DNA of 56,448 bases from the IMG/VR virus record IMGVR_UViG_3300046777_001585, positions 1-56,448 of that record. The stretch is one strand, 5' to 3'. Both the position numbers and the translations under genes were made by a program. This document shows positions 19,277 to 44,101 of the stretch, piece after piece (position 1 is the first letter of the stretch; each line of letters opens with the position of its first letter). The DNA comes from a virus. Taxonomy: Duplodnaviria; Caudoviricetes. A model generated the notes under the pieces. The model made no database searches, had not been told where the DNA came from, and was given only the letters and a program-made list of their open reading frames with translations.

Positions 19277-21136
19277 ATGGCTCTTCTCCGTTTGGCATTA
19301 AAGCCGGGCATAGACAAACAGAATACAGAGTACGGAGCGGAGGGCGGCTGGACCGACTGCGACTACGTGCGCTTTCGCTATGGCCTTCCTGAAAAAGTAG
19401 GCGGCTGGACGTGGTTCGAGCAGCTTGAAACCTATCTCGTTGGCGTCGTATGTCACTCGAGATCTTGGACTTCCTTGGCGGGTGTCCCTTACATGGTAGT
19501 GGGGACAACAAAGAAGCTGTACGTCTATTCCGGCGGTCTTTGGGACGACATCACGCCGCTGCGGGCAACGACCGCCGCTGGAGACGTTACTTTTGCGGCG
19601 ACCAACGGGTCTCCGACCCTTACGGTTACTGACACCGCTCACGGCGCGTTGGCCGGGGATTTTGTTACGTTTAGCGGGGCCAGTTCTCTCGGGGGAAACA
19701 TCACCTCGGCTATCTTAAACGCCGAATATGAAGTTACCTCAGTTCTGACCGCGAACACCTACACCATAACGGCTCCCGTTAATGCCAATGCTTCTGACAG
19801 TGGTAACGGAGGAGCCTCTGTTGTAGGGGCGTACCAGATTTCGATTGGCTTAGACATCAACTACTTCGACTTTGGGTGGGGCGTTGGAGTGTGGGGTGGC
19901 GGGACATGGGGAACCCCTCGTGCTGCCGGCCTAGGCCTGTTTGCTCGAATTTGGCAGTTTGATAACTACGGCGAAGACATGGTCTGCCAGGTCGTGAACG
20001 GCGGAACATACTACTGGGACACCAGCGCAGGCCCTAGCACGCGCGCTTCTCAGATCTCGGGAGCCCCTACCAAAAGTACGTTCGCCCTTGTCTCTACCCC
20101 TGATCGACACCTAGTGTGTTTTGGGACCGAAACAACGATTGGAACTGCGGCTACTCAAGACCCCATGTTTGTGAGGTTCTCCTCCCAGGAGGACATTGGG
20201 AACTTTGCCGAGACTGCCACCAACACCGCGGGAGGTCAGCGGCTCACGGACGGCAATCAGATTGTCACTGCGCTCCGGTCACGCGGCCAGATACTTATCC
20301 TGACGGACACGTCATTGCACGGCATGCAGTACATCGGGCCGCCATACACTTTCGGTTTCCAGCAGCTGGGCGCAAATTGCGGATGCATCGGGGCCCATGC
20401 AGCGGTAGACATCAACGGCCTGGCGTTCTGGATGAGCCAGGAGGCGTTCTACGTATTCGACGGAACGACCAAAAAGCTTCCCTGCACTGTTCAGGACTAC
20501 GTGTTCGACGACATCAACTCCGTGCAAGGAACCCGCGTTTTTGTGGGCCTGAACTCCGATTTCAACGAGGTCACATGGTTTTACTGTTCGCAGAATTCGG
20601 ACTACATCGACCGCTGCGTGACGTTTAACTACCTTGAGCAGGTCTGGAGCATTGGAACCATGTCTCGGACGTGGTGGGAGGATGCCTCGGTGTTTAAGTA
20701 CCCGACAGCGTTTTCCTACCTGCCAAGCAGCACTGAAAGCACTATTTCGACGGTTTACGGCCTGTCGGCGGGAAGGTCTCCCGCGTACGCGCAGGAGTAC
20801 GGAAAGAATGCGGTTGACGAGGCCATCACGGCCTACATTCGTTCGGGCTATTTTGACATTGGCGACGGAGACAACATGCTCCTCATGAGCAGGTTCTTGC
20901 CTGACTTCAAGGAGCAGGAGGGAGACCTTACGGTCCACTTGTTGCTGCGGGCATACCCGCAGGGCACTGCCTCCCCCAGTTCCCTGGACCCATACACGGT
21001 AACGCCTACGACGACCAAGATCGACACCAGGGCGCGGGGCAGACAAATCTCGCTTCGGATCGAGAGTGACGAGATTGACACCAAGTGGCGGTATGGAACC
21101 CTGCGGGTAGACTTGCAGCCGGACGGCCTTAGATGA
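19277..21136 (+). CDS. Tail nozzle/tubular protein B-like (P22 gp10-like stabilisation protein)
   Basis: LKPGIDKQNT...VRFRYGLPEKVGGW...DPMFVRFS...RARGRQ...DLQPDGLR; 619 aa, directly upstream of the ejection genes. Confidence 0.7.
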   Translation: MALLRLALKPGIDKQNTEYGAEGGWTDCDYVRFRYGLPEKVGGWTWFEQLETYLVGVVCHSRSWTSLAGVPYMVVGTTKKLYVYSGGLWDDITPLRATTAAGDVTFAATNGSPTLTVTDTAHGALAGDFVTFSGASSLGGNITSAILNAEYEVTSVLTANTYTITAPVNANASDSGNGGASVVGAYQISIGLDINYFDFGWGVGVWGGGTWGTPRAAGLGLFARIWQFDNYGEDMVCQVVNGGTYYWDTSAGPSTRASQISGAPTKSTFALVSTPDRHLVCFGTETTIGTAATQDPMFVRFSSQEDIGNFAETATNTAGGQRLTDGNQIVTALRSRGQILILTDTSLHGMQYIGPPYTFGFQQLGANCGCIGAHAAVDINGLAFWMSQEAFYVFDGTTKKLPCTVQDYVFDDINSVQGTRVFVGLNSDFNEVTWFYCSQNSDYIDRCVTFNYLEQVWSIGTMSRTWWEDASVFKYPTAFSYLPSSTESTISTVYGLSAGRSPAYAQEYGKNAVDEAITAYIRSGYFDIGDGDNMLLMSRFLPDFKEQEGDLTVHLLLRAYPQGTASPSSLDPYTVTPTTTKIDTRARGRQISLRIESDEIDTKWRYGTLRVDLQPDGLR

Positions 21137-22250: not shown

Positions 22251-24131
22251 ATGGCTGAAGGTATCATGTCCCTGCCCGATTCTCCCGAAATGACGGGGGA
22301 ATTCGATGTCACTAATGGCCCGGAAGTTTCTCCCGAGGACCGTAAGAAGTTCGAGGACGCGGTTCGTGAGTATGCCAACGCCGACCCGGTTCGGTTTGGC
22401 AATGACCTCATGGGCGCGGTTGAAGAGGCCGATCCAGAGACGGTACGCGAATTTCGAGACGTTTTGTCTTCCGTAGACATGCCCGATGAGCTGGTTGATG
22501 CCATGGGGCAGATGGTTGACGCTTTGCTGAGCGAACCAGAGAACTATGAAGAAAACCGTCAGGGATTTATTGCGGAAGGGGTTCCGGAAGAACTCCTGCC
22601 GGTGACGTTTGATGCCGCCTATTTCACCGCTCTAAACATCGCGCTTGACCAAATTTCCGAGCAGAAAAACAGCCGCCCGGAAATGCCTGACAACATGGAA
22701 TTTGCCGAAGGGGGCCTCGCCACCTTGGCTGATATGGGCCGTGGTCCTGACACCATGCTGGCGCACATCACGCCTTCCGAGGCACGATTGCTGCGCCGCA
22801 GGGGCGGAAGTGGAACCATAAACCCTGATACAGGACTGCCAGAGTTTTTCTTCAAAAAAATATTCAAGGCCATTGGGAAGGTCTTCAAAGCCGCGGTAAA
22901 CGTCGTTACAGCCGTCGTCAAACCAATCGTTAACGTCGTCAAGAAAGTAGCTGAAAATCCTATCGGAAGGGTCCTCCTCACTGTCGGGGCAACGATGCTC
23001 CTTGGTCCGGGAAGCGCGCTTTTTGGTGGAGCTGGCTTGGCGGGATCGCTTGGCATGGCGGCCATGCCCAACTTGGCGCTGGCCTTCAATACTGCGGCTG
23101 CAAGCACTTTGGTGAACTGGGCGGGCGGCCAGAAATTTGGCGATGCGCTTAAGGGCGGATTGTTGACTGGCGCTACAGTGGGCATTGGCTCCAAGGTGCT
23201 TAACCTGACCCCGGAGGCATACACCAAGGCGGCAGAGGCCGCGAAAAGTTCTGCCGCAGTAAAGACAGCCGGGCTGGGGGAAAGTTACGCGGGAGAGATG
23301 CCGGAAGCTACTGCACTGCCCGAAGGGGGCGCCAATCAGGCTATCACCTCCGCAAAGGCGTCGGTTCCCGACGCTGCCACCAGTGCGGCGGATATCGCGG
23401 CGAAAGCAGGTTCTCCCACCACAGCGACCAAGGCCGTCGAACAATCGTGGCTTGGCAAGACCTTTGGAAAGCCCGGTGAATGGGTCAACGACAACATTCT
23501 ACCTGGCGGGATTAAGCAGAAGGGCGAGGTTGCGGCCAACGAAGCGTTTGACAGCGCCTACAAAGACGCCATTGCCGGGGGCTTAAGCGACAAGGCCGCT
23601 ACTACTCTTGCCCAAAATGCGTATGACGCAGCTGTCCCCGGACTTCTTCGGACCTACGGCCCGCTTGCTGCCGTCGGGATAGGGGGCGCGTATCTGGCGG
23701 GGGCTTTTGACCCCGCCACGGGAGAAGAAGCAGCGCCCCCGCCAGGCTACGAGGGGATGATCGACGAACGCTACGCTGGAAAGACCGGCTATCAATTGAT
23801 CGAAGAAGACCCCGAGAAATGGGCCTTCAAAAGAGGAGATTATTCCACTGGGTATCACGGGTTTGACCCCTACTCCTCGAACTACCTCTCGGGGTCCGCG
23901 CCTCAGTACGCTGCCAAAGGCGGGGAAATGACGCTTGATGATTTTCCCCGTAAGACTGGCAAGATCGACGGCCCTGGAACCGGGACTTCGGACTCAATTC
24001 CAGCGATGCTTTCCGACGGAGAGTTTGTATTCACCGCAAAGGCGGTCAGGGGCGCGGGCAACGGCTCTCGGCGTGCGGGCGCTGCTCGCATGTATGCCTT
24101 GATGAAGTCGCTGGAGAAGTCCAATGCCTGA
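22251..24131 (+). CDS. Internal virion/ejection protein with membrane-active segments
   Basis: GRGPDTMLAHITPSEA...TINPDTGLPEF and GPGTGTSDSIPAMLSDGEFV motifs; amphipathic and glycine-zipper helices. Confidence 0.65.
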   Translation: MAEGIMSLPDSPEMTGEFDVTNGPEVSPEDRKKFEDAVREYANADPVRFGNDLMGAVEEADPETVREFRDVLSSVDMPDELVDAMGQMVDALLSEPENYEENRQGFIAEGVPEELLPVTFDAAYFTALNIALDQISEQKNSRPEMPDNMEFAEGGLATLADMGRGPDTMLAHITPSEARLLRRRGGSGTINPDTGLPEFFFKKIFKAIGKVFKAAVNVVTAVVKPIVNVVKKVAENPIGRVLLTVGATMLLGPGSALFGGAGLAGSLGMAAMPNLALAFNTAAASTLVNWAGGQKFGDALKGGLLTGATVGIGSKVLNLTPEAYTKAAEAAKSSAAVKTAGLGESYAGEMPEATALPEGGANQAITSAKASVPDAATSAADIAAKAGSPTTATKAVEQSWLGKTFGKPGEWVNDNILPGGIKQKGEVAANEAFDSAYKDAIAGGLSDKAATTLAQNAYDAAVPGLLRTYGPLAAVGIGGAYLAGAFDPATGEEAAPPPGYEGMIDERYAGKTGYQLIEEDPEKWAFKRGDYSTGYHGFDPYSSNYLSGSAPQYAAKGGEMTLDDFPRKTGKIDGPGTGTSDSIPAMLSDGEFVFTAKAVRGAGNGSRRAGAARMYALMKSLEKSNA

Positions 24132-27102
24132 AACTACTTATACCGGCCAAATCGTCAGAGAGGCCCCGGAGGTTGAGGCCCAAAAAGCTGCGGTTATTAA
24201 ACTAGCGCAGGACGAACTTAAAAAAGATTTTCAGCTTCCCGCATACGTCGCAGCAGGACTTTCGCCTACCCAGCTTCAGGCCATGGACCTTGCTCAGCAA
24301 GGTATCGGCCTCTACGAACCCTACCTCGATGCTGCCTCAGATGCCATTACCCAGGGCCAAGACCTGGCGATGCTGGGTGCGCAGGACATCTACGGCATCA
24401 ACATGGACCCGCAGTTCCAAGCTGCGCGAGAAGCCTACCAGCAGGGGATAATCTCGGCTGACCAGCTGGGCCAGTACCAGCAGGACATTGCGGAGGGAAG
24501 CCAGTACATCAAACGTGGTGCCAACGTCGTGGGCCGCGCTGCTGGGATGGCGGACGACTACCTGCAGGCCGACCTTGGGCGTGCCCAAGGCCTGATGGGC
24601 CAAGGGGCGGCAGCCGTTCGCGGCGCGGAACCTGACTTTGGGGCAGCGGAACGTGTAACTAACCGCCTCGGCACCTATGCCCAACAGGCTGGGCAGGGCG
24701 CGGGCAGCGTTACCGGTGGGATTGCCGGAATTAACGAAGCGCAGCGGATGCTTCGCGGCGAAACCAGCGCCGACCTTGGCGCAAGCCAAGCTGCTATCCG
24801 GCAGGGCTTGGCCGCTACGCGAGGCGCGGACACTGATTTTAGTGCAGCAGAACGTGCTGCACAGGGCATTGGTCAGTTTATCAATGCGGCGGACGAGGGA
24901 ATGGGGACCGTGGCCCAAGGCACACGGGGCATGGCCCAAGCAGCACGGTCAGCGGATGAGTACGCGCAGGCGGACACTGCGGCCAGTGAGGCCGCTCTTC
25001 GTCAGGGGCTTACCGCTGCCAGGGCAGTCGACCCGAATTTCGCTGCTTCAGAGCGTATTGCAAGGGGAATGGGGCAGTTTACTAATGCCGCAGACCTTGG
25101 CATGGGAGCTATTGGCCAAGGGATGCAGGGAATGCGTCGCGCCGCACAAGGTGCGGAGGAATACGCGCAGGCGGACCTTGGTCGTTCTCAGGCGTTGATT
25201 AACCAAGCAGCACGTACCTCGCAGCAGGCGGACGTTGACATGGGCTTGGCGAACCGAGCGGTTCGGTCCGGGATCCAAACGGCGGGCAATATTTCAGAAG
25301 CGGCAATGCCCGCGCAGCGTCAGGCGGCCCGAACGATCAACCTCGGCATTGAAGGCCTGCTCCAAGGCGCGGAAGGATATTCTCCTGACGCCGCCCAAGA
25401 ATTCATGAACCCCTATCAGCGTGCGGTCACACGTCAGGCGATGCAGGAGATGCGTCGCCAGGCTGACATTGCGCGTCAGGAAATGGCTTCCCAAGCGGTG
25501 CGTGCGGGGGCTTTTGGTGGTACTCGCGAAGGGGTTCAGCGCGCTGAGTTTGAACGCAACGTTCAAGACCAGATGCAGCAGAAGATCATGCAGGACTACG
25601 CGCAAAATTATTCGCAGGCGCAGCAGGCTGCGATGCAGGGCTTTGAACAGCAGCAGCAGCGTCAACTTGGGCAAGGCACTGCGCTTGGCCAGTTGGGGCT
25701 TTCGCAAAGCGAAATCGGCCAGCGCAGCGCGGCCACTCTTGCGCAGGAGGCCGCGCTTCAGGGCACCCTTGGAACTCAAGCGGGGGCTCTGCAGAGTGCA
25801 GAATCACAGGCGGAACTCGCGCAGGCGGCTCAGTTGGCGCAGGCAGGGCAGGCACTTGGCCAGCAGGAGCTTCAGCAGGCCCAGCTGGGCCAAGCGGCCA
25901 CTGGGCTCGAAGCGAACATCTACCAGAACTTGGTTCAGGCTGGATATGCTCCGGCACAGATCGCTCAGGTTCAGAGCCAGATTGAAGCGCAGCGTGCGGG
26001 TATTCTTAGCGACGCTGAGTCCAGGTCGCTACAGGCTGAGCTTTCGAGGGCGCAGCAGATTGCCCAGACGGGCCAGGCAATGGGCCAACAGGCTATTCAG
26101 CAGGCTCAGCTGGGCCAAGCCGCTACCGGGCTCGAAGCGAACATCTACCAGAACCTCGTCCAAGCGGGGTATATGCCGGCGCAGATTGCACAAATTCAGG
26201 GGCAGATGGCCGCGCAGCGCGCAGGCCTGCTTACCGACGTGCAGTCGCGAGAACTCCAAGGAGAACTTGCGAGGGCGCAGCAGCTTGTACAAGCTGGGCA
26301 GACGCTTGGTCAGCAGGAAATCCAGCAGACCCAGCTGGGGCAGTCCGCTGCGCAGGCGATGGGCGCGTTGTCCGCCCAGGAAGCGCAGGCAGGGACGATG
26401 TATGGCCAGATTGCTGGCCAGCAGGCGAACATCACAAACCAGCAAGCGCAGAACCTAGCCAATATGCAGACCCAAGAGGCTCAGTTGGGTCTTCAGCAGG
26501 GTCAGCAACTGGCGAACATTGGCCAAACCATGGGCGCACAGGAAATCCAGCAGGCCCAGTTGGGGCAGCAGGGCGTGCAGAACATGGCTGCCGCTGGCCA
26601 GGCCCTTGGTCAGATGGGCCTGCAGCAGGGTCAGTTGGGCACGGCCCAAGGAAACCTTGCCACGCAGGAAGCGCAGTTGTACGGACAGCTTGGCCAAGGC
26701 ATTGGCAGTCTTGCCGCCCAGCAGGCGGGAACGACGCTGTCTCAGGGGCAGGCGCTGGCGCAGACTGGTCAGCAAATCGCTTCCATGGGCATCCAGCAGG
26801 GCGCTATTGGCCAACAGGCGCAGGCCGGCGCACAGGCCGACGTGGGTCAGTTGTTCAACCTTGGCGTGGCCGAGCAGCAGAACGCGCAGATGCAGGAAGA
26901 CGCTATCCGGGCAACGGCAGTACAGGAGGCGATGCAGGGGCGTCAGGACGTGGGGTTCATGAGCGACATTGTGAGAGGAGCGCCGACGACCCAGATGTCG
27001 ATGTCCACGCAGGCTGCGCCAAGCGCAAGCACTCTGCAGCAGATCGCTGGAATTGGAACGGGTCTTATGGCCGGAGCAGGCGCCGTAAAAGGGCTTATGT
27101 AA
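24124..27102 (+). CDS. Gln/Ala/Gly-rich ejection (DNA pilot/tube-like) protein
   Basis: Central FMNPY...AGAFGGTR core, helical repeats on both sides, and a hydrophobic C-terminus. Confidence 0.65.
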   Translation: MPETTYTGQIVREAPEVEAQKAAVIKLAQDELKKDFQLPAYVAAGLSPTQLQAMDLAQQGIGLYEPYLDAASDAITQGQDLAMLGAQDIYGINMDPQFQAAREAYQQGIISADQLGQYQQDIAEGSQYIKRGANVVGRAAGMADDYLQADLGRAQGLMGQGAAAVRGAEPDFGAAERVTNRLGTYAQQAGQGAGSVTGGIAGINEAQRMLRGETSADLGASQAAIRQGLAATRGADTDFSAAERAAQGIGQFINAADEGMGTVAQGTRGMAQAARSADEYAQADTAASEAALRQGLTAARAVDPNFAASERIARGMGQFTNAADLGMGAIGQGMQGMRRAAQGAEEYAQADLGRSQALINQAARTSQQADVDMGLANRAVRSGIQTAGNISEAAMPAQRQAARTINLGIEGLLQGAEGYSPDAAQEFMNPYQRAVTRQAMQEMRRQADIARQEMASQAVRAGAFGGTREGVQRAEFERNVQDQMQQKIMQDYAQNYSQAQQAAMQGFEQQQQRQLGQGTALGQLGLSQSEIGQRSAATLAQEAALQGTLGTQAGALQSAESQAELAQAAQLAQAGQALGQQELQQAQLGQAATGLEANIYQNLVQAGYAPAQIAQVQSQIEAQRAGILSDAESRSLQAELSRAQQIAQTGQAMGQQAIQQAQLGQAATGLEANIYQNLVQAGYMPAQIAQIQGQMAAQRAGLLTDVQSRELQGELARAQQLVQAGQTLGQQEIQQTQLGQSAAQAMGALSAQEAQAGTMYGQIAGQQANITNQQAQNLANMQTQEAQLGLQQGQQLANIGQTMGAQEIQQAQLGQQGVQNMAAAGQALGQMGLQQGQLGTAQGNLATQEAQLYGQLGQGIGSLAAQQAGTTLSQGQALAQTGQQIASMGIQQGAIGQQAQAGAQADVGQLFNLGVAEQQNAQMQEDAIRATAVQEAMQGRQDVGFMSDIVRGAPTTQMSMSTQAAPSASTLQQIAGIGTGLMAGAGAVKGLM

Positions 27103-27111
27103 GGAATTCCT

Positions 27112-29160
27112 ATGAAGTCAAAAGTGCTTAATCGTCCGATGTTTCAGAAGGCCATGGACCCCGAAAACGTGGGGATCATGCATGGCTTCAAGGATTCCCT
27201 TGAGGACAACCTCAAGAAGGTCATGTCGATGTCCGAAGAGGACGACGACGAGAACGAGGCCCCGGAGTACGAAAACGAGGATGAGGAGGGCGAATCCGGG
27301 AGGATGATCGGCAGAACGCCCCGCTCTCCGGAAATCCTGATGAACACCTTGCGCGGGGACATGCGGTCCCCTTCCGCGCGCAGGAAGGAGCTGGCTGACC
27401 TGGTGGGCGAAGAGGCCGCCATGGAAACACCTGAGGAGGTGTTGACGCTGCTCCAAAGCAAGCTTGGCCAGGGCATTGCCAGTGTCCCCGGCTCACAGAA
27501 CGCGGGCCCAGCGCCCGGTGGGGCCCCTCCTCCTCCCCTCCCGCCACCGGGCGCTGGTGCACCGCCCTCAGGTCCGATGGGCCTTGAGGCACTTGGGTCG
27601 CAACTTCAGGCGGCGGGGCTTACGCCTCCCGCAGGCGGCGCGCCTGCCCCAGAGGCACCGGCATCTGGACCAGGGCCCGCGGCCCCCGGACCACTGAACA
27701 TGGCCGACGGCGGTGAGGTTAGCTATGAGCGGTACTACGCCGGCGGCGGAGACGTTCAAAAAAAAAGTAATCTGGAAGATGTAGTTTCCCGTTTTGGAAG
27801 CCCCAATACGGAGGATATTAAAAAGCGTATGGGGGAATATACCTCCCTGTACGGCGATATCCTCGGGGATTCTAAGAAACAGAAAGACCTAGACAAGGCG
27901 CTTATGCTGGCGCAGATCGCCCAGCGTGGGTTCAACTTTGCGGCAAACGTTAGCCCTACCGGAACTCCTTTGACGGGCTCGTTCGCGGCCCGCGCTGCAG
28001 GGGCTTTTGGGGATGTTCCGGGGATTCTTGTCGAAGGGACCAAGAATCAGCGCGAGCGAGATCAAAAAATCAAACTCGCGGCACTTGAAGCCGCTCGCGG
28101 AGACGAATCGGAATCTCGCAAGCTCCTGAGTCAGCTATACATTGCAGACATGAAGGGTAAAGGGTCGTCTAAAACCCTTGTTAAAGAGTTTGTGGACGAA
28201 AACGGCCGGTACGTACAAAGAAACGTTGTTTACGATAAAGATGGAACCTACAAAACGACTTTCACCGACGTTTCTGGGAATGAGATCGTTCCAGGAAAGC
28301 TGTATGAACTTGGGGGGAAAGAAGACGGTGCGGGGGGCGCTGGAATATCCGGCCTCTCTTCAAAAGCAAACGAAGGAACTGCTTTTCTGGCTCAAAATGC
28401 AGAAGCCTACTTAAATGGCACCCTTGCTCCTGAGATGAGAAATGTATTTAGATCTCTTATAGCGGAAGAATTCAGGCCCGCAACAGACTCTGAGGGCAAC
28501 GTTTCCTATATTCCGAGTCCTCTTGCAAAGGATTTGATTGCGAGAGACCCCTCGTTGGCTCTCGTGGTTCCGTCTAGTGTTTCTCCTACAGGAAAACCCG
28601 TGTCTGGCGGGCTTTCTGAAGGAGTTCCCGGAGGAGTTCCCTTGGAAACCCAAGACCAGCGAGAGCCGACTCTTTACGAAAACAGTAGAGGCGTAGGGGG
28701 GCTCGGGGCTCTTGAGGCAGGGTTAGCAAGGGTTCCTTTGGTGACAGAATATGCTGGATCACCGGAACTTCTTGCGAGGAAAAATTCGTTTGCGCTTCAG
28801 ACTAGGCAGCTCCTGAACGAACTTAATGCGAATAAGGCTAAGTCCTTTAGTTCCTCCCAAGACCTGAGGGATGCGCTTGGAAATGTCCAAGACCCCAGCG
28901 TAATTACTACGCAAGCATCCCTTGACGCAGCTGTCCGTACCCTAGACGAAGCATATGCTCGGTTAATACAAGAAACCCAGACCATAATGGAAAATCCAAC
29001 GACCAGTAAGAATAGAAGGGAAGCAGCGGAAGAGGCCTTTATTCTTGCAAACGAGCATAGATCCCAAATTGGCTACCAAGCTGGAATAGAAGAAGAAAAG
29101 GCCATCAGGGACAGGGCTGAACTTTCTCGTTTGAGGAAGCAGATGGGAGGAGGACTGTAA
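27112..29160 (+). CDS. Internal virion/ejection protein
   Basis: VLNRPMF N-terminus, acidic and Pro-rich linkers, MADGGEV motif; lies in the ejection-gene block. Confidence 0.6.
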   Translation: MKSKVLNRPMFQKAMDPENVGIMHGFKDSLEDNLKKVMSMSEEDDDENEAPEYENEDEEGESGRMIGRTPRSPEILMNTLRGDMRSPSARRKELADLVGEEAAMETPEEVLTLLQSKLGQGIASVPGSQNAGPAPGGAPPPPLPPPGAGAPPSGPMGLEALGSQLQAAGLTPPAGGAPAPEAPASGPGPAAPGPLNMADGGEVSYERYYAGGGDVQKKSNLEDVVSRFGSPNTEDIKKRMGEYTSLYGDILGDSKKQKDLDKALMLAQIAQRGFNFAANVSPTGTPLTGSFAARAAGAFGDVPGILVEGTKNQRERDQKIKLAALEAARGDESESRKLLSQLYIADMKGKGSSKTLVKEFVDENGRYVQRNVVYDKDGTYKTTFTDVSGNEIVPGKLYELGGKEDGAGGAGISGLSSKANEGTAFLAQNAEAYLNGTLAPEMRNVFRSLIAEEFRPATDSEGNVSYIPSPLAKDLIARDPSLALVVPSSVSPTGKPVSGGLSEGVPGGVPLETQDQREPTLYENSRGVGGLGALEAGLARVPLVTEYAGSPELLARKNSFALQTRQLLNELNANKAKSFSSSQDLRDALGNVQDPSVITTQASLDAAVRTLDEAYARLIQETQTIMENPTTSKNRREAAEEAFILANEHRSQIGYQAGIEEEKAIRDRAELSRLRKQMGGGL

Positions 29161-32100
29161 TGGCCGCCATTCCTTTGAACGAAGAAGAAAAAAAAGAACT
29201 TGAGTACCTGAGAAAACTTGAAGAACTCAAGATACGCGAAGCCTCAACTCTTGATCGTGCGAAAGCTTCAGGAACGGGGGCGTTGGCGGGACTCGGCTCA
29301 GGATCCGCGGTTCTTTCTGGTGCTCTCGCGGGCGGAAGACTTGGGGCCGCAATAGGCGCTCCTTTTGGGGCAGCGGGGGCGGTTCCAGGGGCACTTATTG
29401 GGACAGGCCTTGGCATGGCTGCGGGATACAGTGCCGGGGAAGGCTTTGAATCTCTTTTGCCGGAAGTTCCTCCTGAGCTGCGTTCGTGGTATGAGGGAGG
29501 TAAGACGACTGGCGAAGCGCTTGGAGGGGCTGGCGCGCTTAGGGCTGCAGCGAAAATACCGACGGCACTTCCAAAATTTCTTCAGGGAATGGGCCTTGAA
29601 AAAGGGAGTTCCTCCGCATTCTTTGGAAAAGAAGCTGTTCCCGCTGTAACTTCTGGAGTGGCGGGAGGGGCTGCTTATGACAAAAATCCAGAAGCCCATT
29701 TGAATAGGTTTATTGCCGAAACGGCGGCTGGATTGGCCTCCCCTTCGTCGATCACAGCCAGTGTTGCCCCGCGCATGAAGGACATGGCGCTCAAAGTTTC
29801 TTCTGCCGTGGGATTTGGCGGCCCTGCTGCAGATCAACGGGCAGTAAATATTTTGTCTGAGGTTCTGTACCAGAACGAACAGATTCCGCTGGACGCTGCT
29901 GATATAGAAATGCTTATCAAAAGGCTTGAAGCAGGTACAGCGCTTCCGCCTGGGGTTTCGCCTACCGCCGCTCAAAAAGTATCCAAGTCCACGTTAAAAG
30001 GTGGATCTCGGGCCTCTGACGTTCTAGTAGCTTTGGAGAAAACCCTCGCTAGGGATAATTCCGAATATGCAACCGACGTAAAGGCTCAAGCCGAAAAATC
30101 TGCAAATGCTTACCAAGCGCTTATAAATGCCCTCAAGGACAGCGGCGATCCGGCGGTCCTTGAGGCTGTCGCAAGCGCTCGAAAGTACAGGTTTGAGGCT
30201 CTCTTAGACGCCCAGAGAATGCGTGCGGAAGATCGCGCAGCGCGGGCTGTTTCTAGGATTGGAACAGTAGGCTCCGCTGATGAGGCCCGAAAGATCGCTG
30301 GCACCGTGGTACAGCAGAATATTGAGTCTTCTTTGGCGAATGCTCGTGAATACGAAAGGATGCTTTGGACTCGCGCAGAAAGGGGAAGCCCGAGAACTGG
30401 GATGGTTCAGCGGGAACCGGGCCTTGGTACGGGCATCGTGCCTGCCAAGCCTCAAAAAGGCTCCGGAGGAGTGCAAAGGACCTTTGTGTCTGTTCCCAAT
30501 CTTCGGAGAAAAGCCCTTGAGATAGCGTCCTCTGTTGGCCCTCTTCGTAAAGGAACGGATCTTTCCGCTGGAGGGAAGGTTATGTCTATTCTTGGCATAT
30601 CGCCCAAGGATCTTGACCTTTACAACCAGGGAAAACTCACCGATGAGTATCTCAGCACCGGAGTTGTTCCCAGTGATTACATCAGGGGCGGCAAAGAATT
30701 TTCTGTCAATGACTTGGTACTGATTCGGTCAGATCTTCTTGCCCTTGGCAGGGATGCGGCCTCTCCCAATGACGCTAGAATGTTTGGGTCTTTGTCCAAT
30801 GCAGCATTGGATGATCTCTCAAAGATCAATCTTCCAGGGTATGACGAAGCTCGCGCCTTTTCAAAGGCGCTAAATGATTCCTACACCAGAACCTACGCCA
30901 ATGAAATAGTGGAGGACGCAGTACCCGAGTACCTGGTACAGAAATCGTTTGCAACGGCAAATGACAGAACCGCATCCCGTCTTTCTGAGGTCGAGGACGC
31001 GGTGGGACTCATGTCCCGTATGTATGATGACGCAGTCAAGAACAATCTTCCTTCTGCTGAAGAACTTGCCCCGTATGCTCAAATGTCCCGAGAGGGCGTT
31101 GACTCCATACAGGAAGCCGAAAGAAACATCTACAGACTTGCGGCAAACAAGGCTCTAGGGCCCGATGGGAGGGTCAATCCCGCAAAACTGTCTGAGTTTG
31201 TAAACCAGAACAAGATGATCCTGGATAAGCTTGGGCTTACTGCGGACATGGAAAACGCAGTTTCCGCTGAAAATGCATTGAGGGCAGCAGTAGACCAACA
31301 GAGTGCGATTAACAAGCAGATTGCCTCTCAGTCCTACCTGTCTCCCCTTCTCGGAGGGAAAAGCCCCGTAAAGGTTCTCTCCGAAGCGGTCGCAAAAGGA
31401 TCTACAAAAAGGGTTAGCGATCTATTGAAGGTCGCCAAAAGGGGCGGTGCGGATCGACAGCAGGCAATAGATGGACTTCGGTCAGCTGTTTACGAATATG
31501 CCTACACGAATGCAGGTGGAGATAAAAGCTTCAGTCCAGAAGCGTTTGAAAAAGCCCTTTTTTCGCCCATTGGAAGAGGGCAGCCTTCTCTTGCAAAACT
31601 TCTAAGGAACGAAGGAGTATTCCAGCCTTCTGACATCAAAAATGTCCTTTCACTGACGAGATCAATGCGCCGAATTGAGAATTCGGTTAACAACAACATT
31701 CGCCTTGACCAACTTGATCCGCAGAACTTGATGGAAGAGCTTCTCGTCAGTCAGTACGCCCTGAAACTTGCCTCGGCAACGAGTCCGGGAGGCGCGGGGT
31801 CCTTGAGCTGGGCTTCTAAGTTCAAGGATGTTGCATCCAGATACCTGGACAAAATGCCCGCTAGAAAGATGAGGATTATCCTTGAAGAGGCCAATAGCAA
31901 TCCCCGTCTGATGGCTAATCTTTTGCGTCGAACAGCTCCTATGTCTCCCAAGCAGAAAATGCAGAACCTGCGGGCGCTGAACTCGTACATGTACGCTGCT
32001 GGATTGAACTATTTTCCGGAGGAGCTTGAGTCCCAGCTTCAGGGTATCGAGCCGACGGAACAGGATGAGGTTGAGGCTAACCTTCCAAAAGACGGAACTG

Positions 32101-32369
32101 CTCGTGGGTTTCTTGAAAGACTCTTTCAGGGATCTCCTGCTGTTCCATCCTCCAGAGGGGTCCCTGGCCAAGAAGCAGCACCTGCTGCCCCTGCGCCGGG
32201 GCCCGCGGCCCAAGGAGCACCTGCCCCCGGCCCTGCAAATACGCAAAGCCGAGCGATGCTGGAGTCCTTGTTCCCCGAAGACAGGCTCTTAAAAGGCCTT
32301 ACCCCTCCCCCGCAGCCTCCCGCTCCGGAGGTTCCGCCGGAGGTTCCGCCGGAGGAAGAGGCCGCATAG
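29160..32369 (+). CDS. Large internal virion/ejection protein
   Basis: 1069 aa, N-terminal glycine zipper, mostly helical; last gene of the structural operon. Confidence 0.6.
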   Translation: MAAIPLNEEEKKELEYLRKLEELKIREASTLDRAKASGTGALAGLGSGSAVLSGALAGGRLGAAIGAPFGAAGAVPGALIGTGLGMAAGYSAGEGFESLLPEVPPELRSWYEGGKTTGEALGGAGALRAAAKIPTALPKFLQGMGLEKGSSSAFFGKEAVPAVTSGVAGGAAYDKNPEAHLNRFIAETAAGLASPSSITASVAPRMKDMALKVSSAVGFGGPAADQRAVNILSEVLYQNEQIPLDAADIEMLIKRLEAGTALPPGVSPTAAQKVSKSTLKGGSRASDVLVALEKTLARDNSEYATDVKAQAEKSANAYQALINALKDSGDPAVLEAVASARKYRFEALLDAQRMRAEDRAARAVSRIGTVGSADEARKIAGTVVQQNIESSLANAREYERMLWTRAERGSPRTGMVQREPGLGTGIVPAKPQKGSGGVQRTFVSVPNLRRKALEIASSVGPLRKGTDLSAGGKVMSILGISPKDLDLYNQGKLTDEYLSTGVVPSDYIRGGKEFSVNDLVLIRSDLLALGRDAASPNDARMFGSLSNAALDDLSKINLPGYDEARAFSKALNDSYTRTYANEIVEDAVPEYLVQKSFATANDRTASRLSEVEDAVGLMSRMYDDAVKNNLPSAEELAPYAQMSREGVDSIQEAERNIYRLAANKALGPDGRVNPAKLSEFVNQNKMILDKLGLTADMENAVSAENALRAAVDQQSAINKQIASQSYLSPLLGGKSPVKVLSEAVAKGSTKRVSDLLKVAKRGGADRQQAIDGLRSAVYEYAYTNAGGDKSFSPEAFEKALFSPIGRGQPSLAKLLRNEGVFQPSDIKNVLSLTRSMRRIENSVNNNIRLDQLDPQNLMEELLVSQYALKLASATSPGGAGSLSWASKFKDVASRYLDKMPARKMRIILEEANSNPRLMANLLRRTAPMSPKQKMQNLRALNSYMYAAGLNYFPEELESQLQGIEPTEQDEVEANLPKDGTARGFLERLFQGSPAVPSSRGVPGQEAAPAAPAPGPAAQGAPAPGPANTQSRAMLESLFPEDRLLKGLTPPPQPPAPEVPPEVPPEEEAA

Positions 32370-33048
32370 CGTCATGGTACTGGCTGACTCTTCTCAGCCA
32401 GTTCTCCCTATGCTGATTAAAATCCCTGCCGGTGGTCGTAAACTCAAGCATGGTCTGCTGCTCGTCGCGGCAGGCCATCAACACTACTCCCATCTCGATC
32501 CGCGTTCCGTGGACCATGTCGTGCGCTAAGGCATACGCGGCAAGCTGCTGGAAGTAATTGTCGATCCACCCTCGTTTCTTGGGCTTGTTTGACTGCTTGA
32601 AGTCGATAATGGCCAACTGCCCACGGTACACGGCTACCATGTCGCAGGTTCCCGCATACTTCTCCGGATAGTAGAGCGGCACTTCTGAGCCGTAGATGGC
32701 GTCAATGTTTTTGAAGAACGTGTTGACCAGGCGGTAGCCCATTTCATAGCCTTGGATCATCATCCAGTTAGTAGGCCGCGGTAAGTCCCGCATGGCCACC
32801 ATCCGCTCGATGACCGAGTGCATGTGCGTCCCTACGGTGGCGGCTTCCGTCTTAATCCTATCTGCCTCCTCGTCCCCCACTCGCTTTTGCCAGTCCAGCA
32901 GGGCCGTTTTGTCGCCCGTTGACGACAGGATGTGGGTTACGCTGGGCAGACGTTGGTCCCCGTAGACATACCGACGCCCCTGGGGGCCGTCTTCCCGCCG
33001 AAGTTCTTCGTATTTGAAATCCTTCCTGATAGGTATCAAATCAACCAT
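32299..33048 (-). CDS. PD-(D/E)XK exonuclease (MGME1/Cas4-like)
   Basis: LPSVTHIL, GTHMH, YAGTCD, IIDFKQS and QLAAYA motifs. Confidence 0.85.
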   Translation of the reverse strand: MVDLIPIRKDFKYEELRREDGPQGRRYVYGDQRLPSVTHILSSTGDKTALLDWQKRVGDEEADRIKTEAATVGTHMHSVIERMVAMRDLPRPTNWMMIQGYEMGYRLVNTFFKNIDAIYGSEVPLYYPEKYAGTCDMVAVYRGQLAIIDFKQSNKPKKRGWIDNYFQQLAAYALAHDMVHGTRIEMGVVLMACRDEQQTMLEFTTTGRDFNQHRENWLRRVSQYHDAMRPLPPAEPPAEPPEREAAGEG

Positions 33049-34487
33049 GCTCGAATGTCCTCCCCGAGTACTTGATTAGCGATGTCGATCTTGCTGCGAA
33101 GCGCTTTGACAATCTTCTCGTCCACCGTCCGAGGAGACATTAGGTCCACATAGGTAACGTGGTGCTTCTGGCCGATGCGGTGGGCGCGATCTTCTGACTG
33201 GAGTCGTACCTCCAAGTCAAAGCTGTTGCTGTAGTAGACGACCAGGGCAGCCGCAGTCAGGGTGAGCCCATACCCCCCTGTTCTAGGGTTCCCAACGAAG
33301 AACCTCAGGGGACTGTCCGGGTCTTGGAATTCACGGACCACGCGCCTCCGCTCCTCGTCGTCAGTGTCTCCGTAGTAGGTTCCGACGGCCTCCATCCCGT
33401 ACACCCGCTGGAGTTCCAACTTGATGGACTGAATGTCGTGTCGGTAGGTGGCCCAGATAATCACCTTGCCGTCCGACTCCTCCAGGACATTCAAAAGTTC
33501 ATTCACGCGGTTGTTGGGCAGGCTCACTACCTCACCAGAGTCTAGCTTCAAGTGGCCGCACACAATCTGGTGAAGACGCATTAACTGGGTCAGGGCGTTG
33601 ACGGTACTGGCCGTGTCCTGCTCCATGCTAGCCATCGCCAGGTGTTTCATTTCCATGTAGACCCTACCCTGCTCGTCCGTCAGGTCCACCTCCCGCTTGA
33701 CGTACAGTTTCTCGGGGAGGTCCAAGCATTCCTCCTTGGTGACCCGGAAGCTGAACTTGTCTAGTTTTTCCTGCAACTCATCGAGTTTGCGGTAAGCGAC
33801 CACTTTCTTGAACGAATGGCTGCCAAGGGACTTCTCTACGGTGACCGCGTACCGAGATTGGAAGGCGTAGTAGCTGCTGAACCCGAGGCAGTCATCATCC
33901 AAAAAGGCGCACTGCTGGTATAGGTCCATGGGGGACTTGGTCACTGGGGAGCCGGTCATCACCCGTCGGAACCGGGCTAGTTTGCCCAGTTTTGCCGCGT
34001 TTTTTGACCTGGTTGCCGTGTGGCTTTTGATGGTGGTGCTTTCATCAATCGCCATGAACACCTTGTACATGTTTAAGAAGAACTTCGCGAACGAAGTCCC
34101 TTTGCTCGTGGACAACGCCTCGATGTTCATCACCAGAATCCGCAAATCATCCGTGGAATCCAGCAAATGGTCCATGGCCCGCTGCTGAGCCTTCCGTGGA
34201 GACGGGGACCACAGGGCAACACGATGCAGAACGTGTTCGGGGAGATGCCGAGGCAGCTCGGTGTCCACCCAGTTCCTGTACACCCCTTTCGGGGCGATGA
34301 TCAAAGCCGCATTGATGCGTCCTTGGTCGTACAGCATCGCGATGTTGTTGATCACCATGTACGACTTCCCTGTTCCCATCTCGGCAAACAGAGCGGCGAC
34401 ATGTTTGTTCCAGAACCTGGCCAAATAGGCCTCTTGATGCAGGAACGGTTTATTTTTGTAGGGATAGTTCGCTAAAAATTGTTCCAT
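33036..34487 (-). CDS. SNF2-family helicase
   Basis: EMGTGKS (Walker A), IDEST, MTGSP, GYGLTL and QSEDRAHRIGQ. Confidence 0.9.
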   Translation of the reverse strand: MEQFLANYPYKNKPFLHQEAYLARFWNKHVAALFAEMGTGKSYMVINNIAMLYDQGRINAALIIAPKGVYRNWVDTELPRHLPEHVLHRVALWSPSPRKAQQRAMDHLLDSTDDLRILVMNIEALSTSKGTSFAKFFLNMYKVFMAIDESTTIKSHTATRSKNAAKLGKLARFRRVMTGSPVTKSPMDLYQQCAFLDDDCLGFSSYYAFQSRYAVTVEKSLGSHSFKKVVAYRKLDELQEKLDKFSFRVTKEECLDLPEKLYVKREVDLTDEQGRVYMEMKHLAMASMEQDTASTVNALTQLMRLHQIVCGHLKLDSGEVVSLPNNRVNELLNVLEESDGKVIIWATYRHDIQSIKLELQRVYGMEAVGTYYGDTDDEERRRVVREFQDPDSPLRFFVGNPRTGGYGLTLTAAALVVYYSNSFDLEVRLQSEDRAHRIGQKHHVTYVDLMSPRTVDEKIVKALRSKIDIANQVLGEDIRAWLI

Positions 34488-34897: not shown

Positions 34898-35435
34898 CTT
34901 GTTTGAGAAAGACGCAGAAGCCTTCCAAATCCAGGATGACGCGCTACAGAGCGTTGGTCTTCTTGCCCACCGGGCCAAGGAGCTGGAGAAGGAACTAGAA
35001 GACCTTGAAGCTTCGATCAAGGAGCGCAAGGACCAGTACCGTAAACTCACTGAAGAATCCATCCCCGAGGCCTTGGCCACGCTTGGGATGAAGTCCTTTA
35101 GGATGAAGGACGGTTCGAGCATTGAAATCAAGCCGTTTTATGGGGCATCAATCCCCGAGGGCCGTCGCGCAGAGGCCTACGAATGGCTCCGTGGTCGGGG
35201 ATTCGACGACATCATCAAGAACGTCGTTTCGGTGCGCTTCGGGCGTGGCGAAGACGAACTATGTGCTCGCCTGGTGCGATTGTTGCGGGAGGAAGGCTAT
35301 CCTCTCGACCAGTCGGAGAAGGTAGAGCCTATGACCTTGAAGGCGTGGGTTCGCGAGCAGATCGAGCGTGGCAACGAGTTCCCCCAGGAACTGTTCGGCG
35401 CATACATTGGCCAGAAGGCCGTTATCAAGTCCTAA
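34890..35435 (+). CDS. Conserved replication-module protein (coiled coil)
   Basis: AYEWLR..G.DDIIKN...VEPMTLKAWVRE family found before the SSB in such phages; SD gagg. Confidence 0.7.
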   Translation: MNNLFEKDAEAFQIQDDALQSVGLLAHRAKELEKELEDLEASIKERKDQYRKLTEESIPEALATLGMKSFRMKDGSSIEIKPFYGASIPEGRRAEAYEWLRGRGFDDIIKNVVSVRFGRGEDELCARLVRLLREEGYPLDQSEKVEPMTLKAWVREQIERGNEFPQELFGAYIGQKAVIKS

Positions 35436-35455
35436 AGAAACACGAGGAAAGACAT

Positions 35456-36223
35456 ATGAGCAAGAATCTTGCAGAAAAGACTGAAACCGCACTAACCACC
35501 GTGACGAGCTTCGAGGAGGATGCTCAGTCCGGCTTTGACGGGATGAACCAAGACGACTTGGCGCTCCCCTTCCTGCGCCTGCTCACGGCCACCAGCCCTG
35601 AAGTCGGCGAAGTGGACGGCGCAATGCCTGGAATGGTGTACAACACCGTGACCGGGCAGCTGTATGACGGCAAGAAGGGGCTTCTTGTTATTCCATGCGC
35701 CTACGTCCGCCAGTACATTGAGTGGGCCCCTCGCGGGAGCGGTAGCGGCGCTCCGGTGACGATTTACCCGGCGACATCGGACGTGCTTAGCCGTACGCAC
35801 CGCGAACCGGGGGACAATCGTGACTACCTGGACAACGGCAACTACATCGAGAACACCGCGAATCACTATGTGATGGTGATTGACGAGAAGGGCTCGCCTG
35901 CGCCTGCTCTGATTGTGATGAAGAGCACGCAGCTGAAGAAATCTCGTAAGTGGAACTCGATGCAGATGAGCGTGAAGCTGCAGTCGTCGCAAGGCGGCCT
36001 GTACACGCCCCCGATGTTCAGCCAAGTGTACCGGCTGACCACGCAGCAGGAGTCGAATGACAAGGGTAAGTGGTACGGCTGGGAAATCGAGCGCGTCGGT
36101 TCTGTGGAGGATATGAGTGTTTATCGTCTGGCGAAGGAATTTGCCAATTCCGTGAAGTCCGGAGATGTGCAAATCAAGCATCAGGACGAGGCCGGAGCCC
36201 CGGTACAGAACGCTCCATTCTGA
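35456..36223 (+). CDS. Putative single-stranded DNA-binding protein
   Basis: DLALPFLRLL...MKSTQLKKSRKWNS...NDKGKWYGW, ending in PF; located before the primase; SD gagg. Confidence 0.6.
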   Translation: MSKNLAEKTETALTTVTSFEEDAQSGFDGMNQDDLALPFLRLLTATSPEVGEVDGAMPGMVYNTVTGQLYDGKKGLLVIPCAYVRQYIEWAPRGSGSGAPVTIYPATSDVLSRTHREPGDNRDYLDNGNYIENTANHYVMVIDEKGSPAPALIVMKSTQLKKSRKWNSMQMSVKLQSSQGGLYTPPMFSQVYRLTTQQESNDKGKWYGWEIERVGSVEDMSVYRLAKEFANSVKSGDVQIKHQDEAGAPVQNAPF

Positions 36224-42653: not shown

Positions 42654-43916
42654 ATGATCAAGAAGCCGATGATGGCGAAGCGCACCACCAAGGCCGCGCC
42701 CGCTAAGAAGAAGACCGTAGCGGCTAAGAAGAAGACCGTAGCGGCTAAGAAGCCGATGACCGTTGCCGGGAAGACGGTGAAGAAGTACCAGGTTGGCGGC
42801 CCCGCAATGGGCAGCCCTCGTGCCAATCCCACGGCGACCGTTGGAATGCAGCGGCCCACGATAACGCCGGGAATGACTGCCCCACAAATGAGGCAAGCCT
42901 ACGGCCAGAGCGCGGGCATGAATAGGGCGGAGGCCCAGCGGCGAAACGCCAGCATGGCTACCCCTGCAGCGCGTTCCGCCTCCGGCGGTTTCTTGGGTGG
43001 AATGCTGGCGCGCCAAGGCATGACGCCTCGTCCGGGCATGGGCGGCTCAATGATCGCCAACAACGGCGGCGGGCTGATTCCCAACAATGCCGGTGGCATG
43101 GGCCGTGGAATGCCTGTAACTCCCGCTCAGTTTGAACAGTCTCTCGGAGCAGATCGAAATAACTACGTCAGGAACGAGCGAGGAGACTTTTTCCTGCGTC
43201 CGCCTCCGGGCACAACTCCCGCGCAGGCAGAACAGATGTATAGGGCGCAAACGGCCCGACTTCAGGCGATGCAGCAGGGAGCGGGCGGCTCAATGATCGC
43301 CAACAACGGCGGTGGGCTGATTCCTCCCCCGAACTCGCGGCCTAACGTTCCGGGGATTACCCCTCCAATGAATCGCCCCGTTCGCACTCCTCCGCCGCGA
43401 CAGGGGATGCCGCAGGGAATGGACCCCGCAATGCAGCAGTACGCTCAGATGATGCAGCGGCGACAGGGTATGCCGCAGCAAGGGCAGATGCCTTCCATGA
43501 TGCAGGGTATGCAGGGATTGGGCGCGGCGCAGGGTATGCAGCAAGGGCGGGGAGTTCCTTCCCAGATCTCCGACCTGTACGGCGGGCAGCAGAGGCCTCC
43601 CATGATGCAGGGGATGCAGGCGCAGGGGATGCCGGCAATGCCTCCTATGAGGCAACTGGGCGCGGGGCAGCCGCTTAATCGAGCGCCTGCGCAGGGAATG
43701 GACCCATCAATGCAGCAGGAGGCTAACAGGCAGCTGGAGCAGGCTGCGCAGCTGGGTATGCAGGGATTGCAAGCGCCTGCGCGCTTCAGGAAAGGCGGCG
43801 AGGCCAAGAAAAAGGCCGCAGCGCAAGGTCGCATGGCCAAGCCCGCAGGGCGGGGACGCACGACTAAACCTGCAGTGCGTGGCCGCATGGCCAAGCCGAC
43901 ACGAGGGAAGAAGTAA
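42654..43916 (+). CDS. Disordered Gln/Met/Gly/Pro-rich protein with histone-H1-like basic ends
   Basis: SD aagga; (KKKTVAA)n N-terminus, KKYQVGG, GGSMIANNGGGLIP twice, FRKGGEA, and a basic C-terminus. Confidence 0.7.
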   Translation: MIKKPMMAKRTTKAAPAKKKTVAAKKKTVAAKKPMTVAGKTVKKYQVGGPAMGSPRANPTATVGMQRPTITPGMTAPQMRQAYGQSAGMNRAEAQRRNASMATPAARSASGGFLGGMLARQGMTPRPGMGGSMIANNGGGLIPNNAGGMGRGMPVTPAQFEQSLGADRNNYVRNERGDFFLRPPPGTTPAQAEQMYRAQTARLQAMQQGAGGSMIANNGGGLIPPPNSRPNVPGITPPMNRPVRTPPPRQGMPQGMDPAMQQYAQMMQRRQGMPQQGQMPSMMQGMQGLGAAQGMQQGRGVPSQISDLYGGQQRPPMMQGMQAQGMPAMPPMRQLGAGQPLNRAPAQGMDPSMQQEANRQLEQAAQLGMQGLQAPARFRKGGEAKKKAAAQGRMAKPAGRGRTTKPAVRGRMAKPTRGKK

Positions 43917-44101
43917 TGCCAGAGCAGCGAGAACCACGGCCCATGGGCCGTGGTCAGTCGGACGACAGCGTTACAATGAACGAGTACATCTCGTTGCTTC
44001 GATCCCTTCGTGAACGTGGCGCAGACCTTCCGGACTTTCAAAGTCCGGAAGATGTCATCGCGTTCGCCAGGGAGAAAGGCCTTCTGGAGTCACGCGAGTG
44101 A
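43916..44101 (+). CDS. Hypothetical protein
   Basis: TAATG coupling upstream and GTGA overlap downstream. Confidence 0.55.
   Translation: MPEQREPRPMGRGQSDDSVTMNEYISLLRSLRERGADLPDFQSPEDVIAFAREKGLLESRE

Follow-up and report, generated by a model that had tools for sequence, protein, structure and literature searches.

The viral record IMGVR_UViG_3300046777_001585 of IMG/VR, analysed here as one 56,448-base stretch (the window), is estimated to be 91% complete and includes genes for a portal, an HK97-type major head protein, tail fibres, a primase, a helicase and a family-A DNA polymerase. Downstream of its tail nozzle gene, a single open reading frame (ORF; 24124..27102, + strand), whose start overlaps the stop of the upstream gene for a 626-amino-acid (aa) protein, encodes the 992-aa protein that is the subject of this study. 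Analysis of this protein and its relatives revealed two arms of tandem repeats, one on each side of a conserved core, which change length together across the family, in matched steps and in mirror-symmetric order.

Both arms are built of units of constant length. A-D-L/T anchors recur at aa 149, 216, 283 and 350 on the N-terminal side, and QQxQLGQ anchors at aa 584, 659, 734 and 809 on the C-terminal side; the exact spacings of 201 and 225 nucleotides (nt) given for these two series in a preliminary description of the sequence were recovered, with all eight anchors in frame 0 of the ORF. The corresponding 67- and 75-residue registers hold four clear units on each side (U1-U4, aa 109-376, and V1-V4, aa 554-853), and between them, as that description had also stated, lies a non-repetitive core containing FMNPY (aa 427-431) and AGAFGG (aa 461-466). 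Comparison of each region with itself gave a best offset of 67 aa for the N region, at 32% identity versus a maximum of 18% in 200 shuffles, and of 75 aa for the C region, at 39% versus a shuffle maximum of 24%. At the DNA level the 225-nt-spaced copies number four and a single pair shows the 201-nt spacing, and Tandem Repeats Finder alone reported just 2.2 copies of the 225-nt unit. Positions 24001-28000, the region of this gene, have a G+C content of 0.615-0.617 compared with 0.51-0.57 in neighbouring regions, probably because of the Ala/Gly/Gln-rich repeats; A, Q and G together account for 48% of residues in the N arm and 60% of those in the C arm.

The preliminary description had further noted that the units nearest the core are the most similar on both arms, and this proved correct. 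U3 and U4 are 46% identical in aa sequence (31-39% for the other U pairs) and V1 and V2 are 72% identical (39-49% for the other V pairs). The unequal divergence means that the two arms either underwent their latest duplications at different times or evolve at different rates. U and V units showed no detectable homology to each other (hhalign probability 0.3%), so that copying from one arm to the other cannot explain the matching described below.

Among 384 homologues, the 300 complete proteins, which range from 269 to 1016 aa, were used to compare the number of residues before the core (N) with the number after it (C). The two lengths were closely correlated (Pearson r=0.957, slope 1.04, intercept 41) over 150 distinct (N,C) classes, and for 277 of the 300 proteins the deviation from the robust line C = 1.07N + 31 was no more than 20 aa. 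Phylogenetic independent contrasts on a tree of the caps and core retained the correlation (r=0.86, compared with a maximum of 0.27 in 2000 permutations). Of 94 sister pairs, 42 differed by at least 10 aa in either arm; the two arms had grown or shrunk together in 40 of them (sign test p 2e-12), and the ratio of the N change to the C change (dN/dC) lay between 0.6 and 1.25 in 30 of the 42, with a median of 0.95. An independent set of 81 loci, consisting of 80 IMG/VR loci and the metagenome-assembled phage DSL-LC04, provided 64 complete family ORFs and gave nearly the same relationship (r=0.964, slope 1.06). The co-variation of the arms among homologues that the preliminary description had singled out for examination is strongly supported by these comparisons, the two arms having changed length jointly on many independent occasions.

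Pairwise alignment of close relatives showed that the matched N/C insertions and deletions (indels) had sizes of 22-23/25, 32/36, 49-54/57, 67/75, 100/107 and 134/150 residues and that the two members of a pair are about equally far from the core; changes in arm length are quantised and paired. The lengths of the neighbouring virion genes showed no significant relationship to arm length (Spearman -0.26 to 0.21), and no co-varying partner was found among them.

Comparison of individual units revealed that the two arms correspond as mirror images. Hidden Markov models (HMMs) of the units counted 4U+4V in the window protein and three relatives (P0001, P0003 and P0005), 3U+3V in two others (P0002 and P0004) and 1U+1V in P0006, and unit-by-unit comparison of the 4+4 proteins showed one-to-one orthology. 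The 3+3 proteins are 96% (P0002, 850 aa) and 88% identical to the window protein. Their third U unit joins the exact head of U3 to the exact tail of U4, with the crossover in the shared EYAQAD motif, and their first V unit joins the exact head of V1 to the tail of V2, with the crossover within a 25-residue stretch identical in V1 and V2. Because P0002 is 96% identical to the window protein while U3 and U4 are only 46% identical to each other, the 3+3 form derives from a 4+4 ancestor through two separate in-register deletions. Judged from these junctions, the event is the loss of one unit length at the core-proximal pair of each arm. At the other extreme, the 1+1 protein keeps units most like U1 (61%) and V4 (72%), the outermost on both arms. 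Both patterns are as antiparallel pairing predicts (U4-V1 through U1-V4), unlike a parallel register. In nine sister pairs, each with a single matched indel in either arm, the distance from the core to the N-arm indel correlated with that to its C-arm counterpart as mirror symmetry predicts (r 0.80), compared with r 0.06 for the parallel-register predictor; the sample is small, the starts of the arms were approximate, and gaps inside repeats cannot be placed unambiguously. The preliminary description had held that the arms pair antiparallel, so that a duplication on one arm must be matched on the other. Its expectations of matched length change and mirror-symmetric correspondence were borne out, whereas duplication was not the event seen here, since the window protein and its 850-aa relative differ by a matched deletion.

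The family to which the protein belongs is large and shares a common plan. Its relatives comprise 551 proteins of 545-1736 aa and 1109 proteins shorter than 545 aa, and a query with the core (121 aa, aa 400-520) retrieved 2157 clusters at 50% identity (expectation value [E] <=0.001). All relatives share an N cap that is conserved and carries, close to the start, a motif resembling IVREAPEIEAYK, a central core, and a likewise conserved C cap that terminates in a hydrophobic tail rich in Gly and Ala. The family ORFs in the IMG/VR loci reach 1094 aa, and the shortest forms, of about 294 aa, have 86 residues before the core and 126 after it and are essentially armless, indicating that the arms are insertions at the two cap-core junctions. 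Among 50,697 phage-genome records, one was retrieved with the window protein and 12 with a short relative as query; the family is almost confined to uncultured aquatic phages. A search of the ESM Atlas returned unnamed viral clusters only. Two relatives depart from the usual plan, P0346 (957 aa), with many weak helix-turn-helix and UBA-like matches to Pfam and PHROG profiles within its arms, and P0300 (823 aa), with 227 residues before the core and 511 after it, and the arms are apparently able to host other inserts.

Shorter relatives connect the protein to a named family. Searches with the window protein found no match in Pfam or, at E<=0.01, in PHROGs, and the core alone (aa 400-520) did not match phrog_4287 at E<=0.1. 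However, the core HMM of the window clade matched gp27 of the Sinorhizobium phage phiM5 (5.9e-18), gp81 of Pelagibacter phage HTVC023P (4.3e-22), and proteins of Pag-Yong1 (1.1e-14) and DSL-LC04 (2.1e-37), and its C-cap HMM matched phiM5 gp27 (1.2e-7). The same four proteins match phrog_4287, annotated as 'DNA ejection protein' (phiM5 gp27, 6.5e-91; Pag-Yong1, 2.1e-19; HTVC023P gp81, 2.3e-10; DSL-LC04, 6.9e-9), as do the metagenomic relatives P0275 (1.2e-14), P0267 and P0340 in a Pfam and PHROG scan that covered ten diverse family members. Since the clade HMMs match proteins that in turn match phrog_4287, the window protein can be placed as an expanded member of that family, and the label of ejection protein used in the preliminary description gains support from this homology of the short relatives together with the position of the gene downstream of the nozzle gene. 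In GenBank, phiM5 gp27 is described as 'detected in phage particle proteome', and three putative internal virion protein genes follow it. A second identity, that of a tail tape-measure protein, was set aside, as the protein has no tape-measure match in PHROGs or Pfam and the phage has a nozzle gene.

One distant member of the family provides a hint of its oligomeric state. In phiM5 gp27 (L084, 5848-7251), the plain hydrophobic tail is replaced by a C-terminal Peptidase_S74 domain (aa 391-444, E 2.7e-11); no such domain (PF13884) was found in the window protein at E<=0.1. Peptidase_S74 modules sit at the C-terminal end of parallel trimeric fibres, which suggests that at least some family members form parallel trimers.

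The genes around the target also form a constant module (Table 1). The order of nozzle gene, genes for 230-aa, 110-aa and 626-aa proteins, target family, and genes for 682-aa and 1069-aa proteins is kept in nearly all of the 81 loci, and the same order is found in DSL-LC04, where the family member has only 294 aa. One of the matches of the nozzle gene product, 8zkk, is named VP1 nozzle in PMC13730344, and the nozzle match indicates that the phage is short-tailed. The same protein has a weak match to an endosialidase beta-barrel (PF12195, 21.5 bits, below the cutoff). The DSL-LC04 counterpart of the 626-aa protein is labelled 'tail tape measure protein' because of its C-terminal motif, despite the nozzle-type tail. 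DSL-LC04 is described as lacking close relatives in culture and as falling with the pelagiphages by its terminase (PMC10611076). Gly-rich hydrophobic segments occur in the 626-aa, target and 1069-aa proteins, and these segments fit a membrane-active ejection module like those described for T7, DEV, Pa223 and A4 (PMC12002296; bioRxiv 10.1101/2025.06.11.659172; PMC11784390).

Table 1. Subdivisions of the 992-aa protein and neighbouring virion genes, with positions in the window
Feature	Position	Strand	Evidence or remarks
Tail nozzle gene, 619 aa, 'virion structural / stabilization protein'	19277..21136	+	phrog_3287, E 7.8e-93; PDB 8zkk 'nozzle gp16', E 1.2e-8; 9nwi_Y, E 3.4e-15
626-aa protein, three hydrophobic segments at aa 212-279	22251..24131	+	C-terminal motif of ~50 aa (aa 554-606) common to several tape-measure PHROGs; syntenic in 80/81 loci
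Whole ORF, 992 aa	24124..27102	+	predicted all alpha-helical (AlphaFold2 [AF2], DSSP)
N cap, aa 1-108, conserved in the family, ..IVREAPE.E..K.. near the start	24124..24447	+	N-cap HMM in 345/384 proteins; AF2 predicted local distance difference test (pLDDT) 72-90 for aa 11-90
N arm, four 67-aa (201-nt) units	24448..25251	+	U1 24448-24648, U2 24649-24849, U3 24850-25050, U4 25051-25251; hydrophobic period 3.55 residues
Linker from U4 to core, aa 377-416	25252..25371	+	7% identity to U units
Conserved core, aa 417-500, with FMNPY and AGAFGG	25372..25623	+	invariant P430, R445, A458, G462, A463, G465, G466, R468, E475
Post-core segment, aa 501-553, Q-rich helix ahead of the first 75-aa unit	25624..25782	+	register print, AF2
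C arm, four 75-aa (225-nt) units	25783..26682	+	V1 25783-26007, V2 26008-26232, V3 26233-26457, V4 26458-26682
Degenerate Q/G-rich repeats, aa 854-905, running into the C cap	26683..26838	+	12-20% identity to V1-V4
C cap, aa 906-973, conserved	26839..27042	+	invariant D906, G914, Q922, D948, P954; AF2 pLDDT 80-90 for aa 881-950
Gly/Ala-rich hydrophobic C-terminal tail, aa 974-992	27043..27099	+	sole hydrophobic segment of the protein; Kyte-Doolittle 1.31 in a 19-aa window; similar tail kept in relatives
682-aa Pro/Ala-rich protein, no known family	27112..29160	+	relative in 54 ORFs of the 81 loci
1069-aa protein, two Gly-rich hydrophobic segments near the N terminus	29160..32369	+	DSL-LC04 counterpart annotated 'DNA transfer protein'

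Elsewhere in the window, a gene for a GroES-like co-chaperonin (phrog_3188, E 6.7e-17; 5459-5932, +) is flanked by the portal gene on one side and the head genes on the other. The virion module is followed directly, on the opposite strand, by a PD-(D/E)XK nuclease and a SNF2-type helicase (32299-34487, -), as in DSL-LC04, and next by a Pam3 gp34-like protein (PF23977, E 4.9e-66; 35183-36223, +). Three large ORFs (1-2553, 42654-43916 and 44098-45180, all +) had no match in Pfam or PHROGs. A terminase large subunit was not identified in the window, where the obvious candidate is the 5'-open ORF upstream of the portal gene.

Structure prediction outlined the ends and middle of the protein. The AF2 model of the window protein, built from a 50-row alignment, is almost wholly alpha-helical, with a mean pLDDT of 61.5; the caps, the core, V1 and V2 are confident and the N arm is poor. 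For the 567-aa relative P0006 (104 rows, pLDDT 56), the caps and core were again confident and the arms unstructured. The hydrophobic residues of the N arm recur with the period expected of helical bundles (Table 1). Prediction of a complex between the N half (1-214) and C half (299-567) of P0006 gave interaction scores from aligned errors (ipSAE) of 0.22 and 0.05, relative to a mark of 0.32, in runs without controls that count neither way. Mean-field coupling analysis of the caps and core used 296 distinct sequences (effective number, Meff, 118), too few for the purpose; its top pairs were local gap artefacts, with no usable signal between the N cap and the C cap. The best profile match in the PDB, tropomyosin (E 0.084), was taken as an effect of coiled-coil composition, and the A4 pre-ejectosome (9k2v) appeared in a Foldseek search of the model at a non-significant E of 4.3.

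Taken together, these data lead us to favour, as the probable explanation, that the target is carried in the virion and belongs to the genome-ejection module of an uncultured podovirus, as a much enlarged member of the phrog_4287 family whose arms are physically paired within the chain. We infer the physical pairing from the way the arms evolve; a monomeric hairpin as opposed to an oligomer, and a part played by the stalk in passage through the host envelope, are likewise inferred. Minimal relatives of about 280-300 aa consist of N cap, core and C cap only; the window protein has in addition, inserted at the two junctions, two unrelated repeat arrays that are predicted to be helical, one of 4 x 67 aa on the N-terminal side of the core and one of 4 x 75 aa on its C-terminal side. 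In the favoured model, the arrays would lie antiparallel and side by side (U4-V1, U3-V2, U2-V3 and U1-V4), with the chain folding back at the core, which would form the far tip of a helical stalk, and with the caps and the hydrophobic tail together at the opposite end. The stalk would change in length by one unit, or by a sub-module of about 22/25 aa, per arm, and a change in one arm would be compensated in the other. With continuous helices, at 1.5 Å per residue, each 67/75 unit would lengthen the stalk by no more than about 10 nm, and by less in a helix-turn-helix arrangement. A C arm that takes a longer, outer or more kinked path could account for its excess of residues, seen in the slopes of 1.04-1.07 and the unit ratios of about 0.9.

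Several observations weigh against this explanation. As regards arm length, 23 of the 300 proteins and 11 of the 64 in the loci set deviate from the trend line by more than 20 aa, and some sister pairs are mismatched, with dN/dC of 0/+132 (P0069/P0062), +54/0 (P0031/P0015), +110/+57 (P0043/P0011), 43/3 and -112/-361. Independently varying arms, which the preliminary description had named as a finding that would speak against it, are not the rule but do occur at low frequency. As regards structure, the arms have low confidence in both AF2 models (pTM, the predicted template modelling score, 0.29 for the window protein and 0.34 for P0006) and offer no readable N-C contacts. The C arm lacks a clean hydrophobic period of 3.5-3.6 residues, its strongest periods being 2.5 and 6.25, and DSSP divides each V unit of the AF2 model into a helix of about 51 residues and one of about 15. 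Foldseek comparison of the window protein, a low-confidence model, with the PDB gave eight matches at E<=10, none of them at E<=0.001 (best E 4.1). As regards identity, the window protein itself does not match phrog_4287, the link being made through profiles and shorter relatives, and the putative ejection role of the family has its basis in annotation, synteny and the proteome note of one record, not in experiment.

Some of these observations have possible explanations. Repeat mis-assembly in metagenomes may be a source of the single-arm cases; the matched cases are not attributable to it, because mis-assembly cannot create matched changes. In the clade of 583-aa proteins, many clusters show (0,0) for the two arms, three clusters (1,1), two (1,0) and a single one (2,1), a pattern that looks like stepwise change with tolerated intermediates, and the rare mismatched forms (such as +54/0 and +110/+57) are candidate intermediates. 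The low frequency of unmatched forms suggests a constraint that is strong and not absolute. The periods of the C arm are harmonics of a 25-residue repeat only, and the division of the V units into two helices suggests that the arms may be chains of helix-turn-helix modules and not two uninterrupted helices.

Matched lengths and mirror-symmetric correspondence would equally be expected if the antiparallel pairing were between chains, two or more of which, as extended rods, would pack head to tail about a dyad located at the core, so that the N arm of one chain lies on the C arm of another; the AF2 monomer models, which show no confident fold-back, are compatible with this arrangement. We regard it as unlikely, as the S74 domain of phiM5 gp27 is more readily reconciled with parallel C termini than with an antiparallel dimer, and a helical rod of about 990 residues, at 1.5 Å per residue, would be far longer than a capsid for about 56 kb of DNA. 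Pairing of the arms could still hold if the protein were the stalk of an external trimeric tail needle or fibre and not an internal ejection protein. In favour of such a role, the gene is located after that for the nozzle, as is the needle gene in P22-like phages, and several relatives are annotated as tailspike, chaperone of endosialidase or tail fiber domain proteins, with a real Peptidase_S74 domain in phiM5 gp27. However, such labels stem from the added C-terminal S74 domain, whereas the window protein has none and ends in a hydrophobic Gly/Ala tail, its neighbours carry Gly-rich hydrophobic segments like those of membrane-inserting ejection proteins, and the PHROGs label is that of an ejection protein; an external location is therefore improbable.

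Length matching alone requires no contact between the arms, which could be independent spacers that bridge the same distance or fix the position of the core between anchor points held by the caps, and flexible spacers would be expected to have low AF2 confidence. Such spacers give no reason why core-proximal units should be lost jointly and outermost units retained jointly, or why matched indels should lie at similar distances from the core, and the near-constant ratio of N to C residues over a 3.5-fold range of length is more easily explained by packing, making non-contacting arms a rather remote prospect. Finally, a correlation that reflects shared ancestry or the lineage-wise expansion of low-complexity Q/A/G-rich repeats, with no structural constraint, would suit the biased composition of the arms and the unmatched changes of some lineages but is very improbable, being largely refuted already by the sister-pair analysis and opposed by the independent contrasts, the unrelated U and V families, two clean compensatory deletions within 4% sequence divergence and the lack of parallel expansion in neighbouring genes.

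If the arms are paired within the chain as we favour, a more specific arrangement can be tentatively suggested, although we consider it doubtful at present, namely a length-programmable ejectosome stalk, possibly a trimer of hairpins with the N arm inside and the C arm outside, adjustable in steps of about 22/25 aa over a 3.5-fold range that would match the distance to be spanned in the envelopes of different hosts. A C arm wrapping outside the N arm would explain the roughly 7-12% more C-arm residues per same length. The proposal of the preliminary description that arm length is a ruler tuned to the thickness of the host envelope is, in our view, similarly conjectural. Should the length of the stalk be set by some functional target, for instance the host's periplasm or the layers of its envelope, the family holds dozens of naturally occurring length variants within a constant module, and if length is indeed matched to the envelope, it would provide a natural dial for studying how envelope geometry constrains genome delivery. 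Length changes that are two-sided, mirror-symmetric and quantised clearly bear the evolutionary mark of a structural constraint and make the family a clean example of compensatory indel evolution, yielding a concrete, testable fold model where structure prediction fails. Beyond T7, P22 and a few recent cryo-EM cases, the ejection proteins of short-tailed phages are poorly understood.

The closest known proteins are the named members of phrog_4287 (phiM5 gp27, HTVC023P gp81 and WJZ48114.1 of DSL-LC04), which have the N cap, core and C cap in common with the target; in DSL-LC04 the member also occupies the same gene position in the virion module. These proteins differ from the target in having 278-468 aa and little or no arm, compared with about 570 extra residues arranged as 4+4 units in the target, and phiM5 gp27 has in addition the S74 domain that the target lacks. 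The better-characterised ejection proteins, gp14, gp15 and gp16 of T7, gp72 of DEV, gp53, gp54 and gp56 of Pa223 and gp26-29 of cyanophage A4, are described in the accessible parts of their reports as alpha-helical virion proteins that are ejected and build a trans-envelope channel (PMC12002296; bioRxiv 10.1101/2025.06.11.659172; PMC11784390). According to the same sources podovirus ejectosome proteins are encoded beside tail genes, and here likewise a run of large proteins follows the nozzle gene, with Gly-rich hydrophobic segments in three of the proteins. The target nevertheless shows no sequence match (best E in the PDB, that of tropomyosin) or, from its low-confidence model, fold match (the Foldseek search above) to the solved proteins of T7 (gp14-16), DEV (gp72) and A4 (gp26-29), and length-matched repeat arms are not described for the T7, DEV, Pa223 or A4 proteins in those parts of the reports. 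Nor was a description of matched repeat arms in any ejection protein found in the literature searched, a body of text that did not extend to supplementary annotation tables.

Phage tape-measure proteins are single extended chains of long-tailed phages, without two-sided matched expansion, whereas the phage studied here has a short tail of the nozzle type. They share with the phiX174 H tube, and with the target, the property of being helical virion proteins in which the number of residues could set a length and tandem repeats alter it (see also PMC7354561).

The pattern of the target is best known from other kinds of protein. Long antiparallel coiled-coil arms occur in SMC, Rad50 and MukB, in the helical hairpin of colicin Ia, in the hairpins of AcrA/MacA-type adaptors, in the trimer-of-hairpins of class I fusion proteins and in the needle tip of P22 gp26, and in such proteins conserved ends and a turn are joined by two length-matched helical segments, as in the target. 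There is no homology between them and the target, whose arms are two unrelated families of tandem repeats with a residue ratio of about 0.9 and, in a further difference, vary in copy number between near-identical phages. In sum, a phage ejection protein by annotation and matched antiparallel arms as a design principle of unrelated proteins were both already known; what is new here is their combination, its quantised and mirror-symmetric evolution, and a 3.5-fold range of length within a constant gene module.

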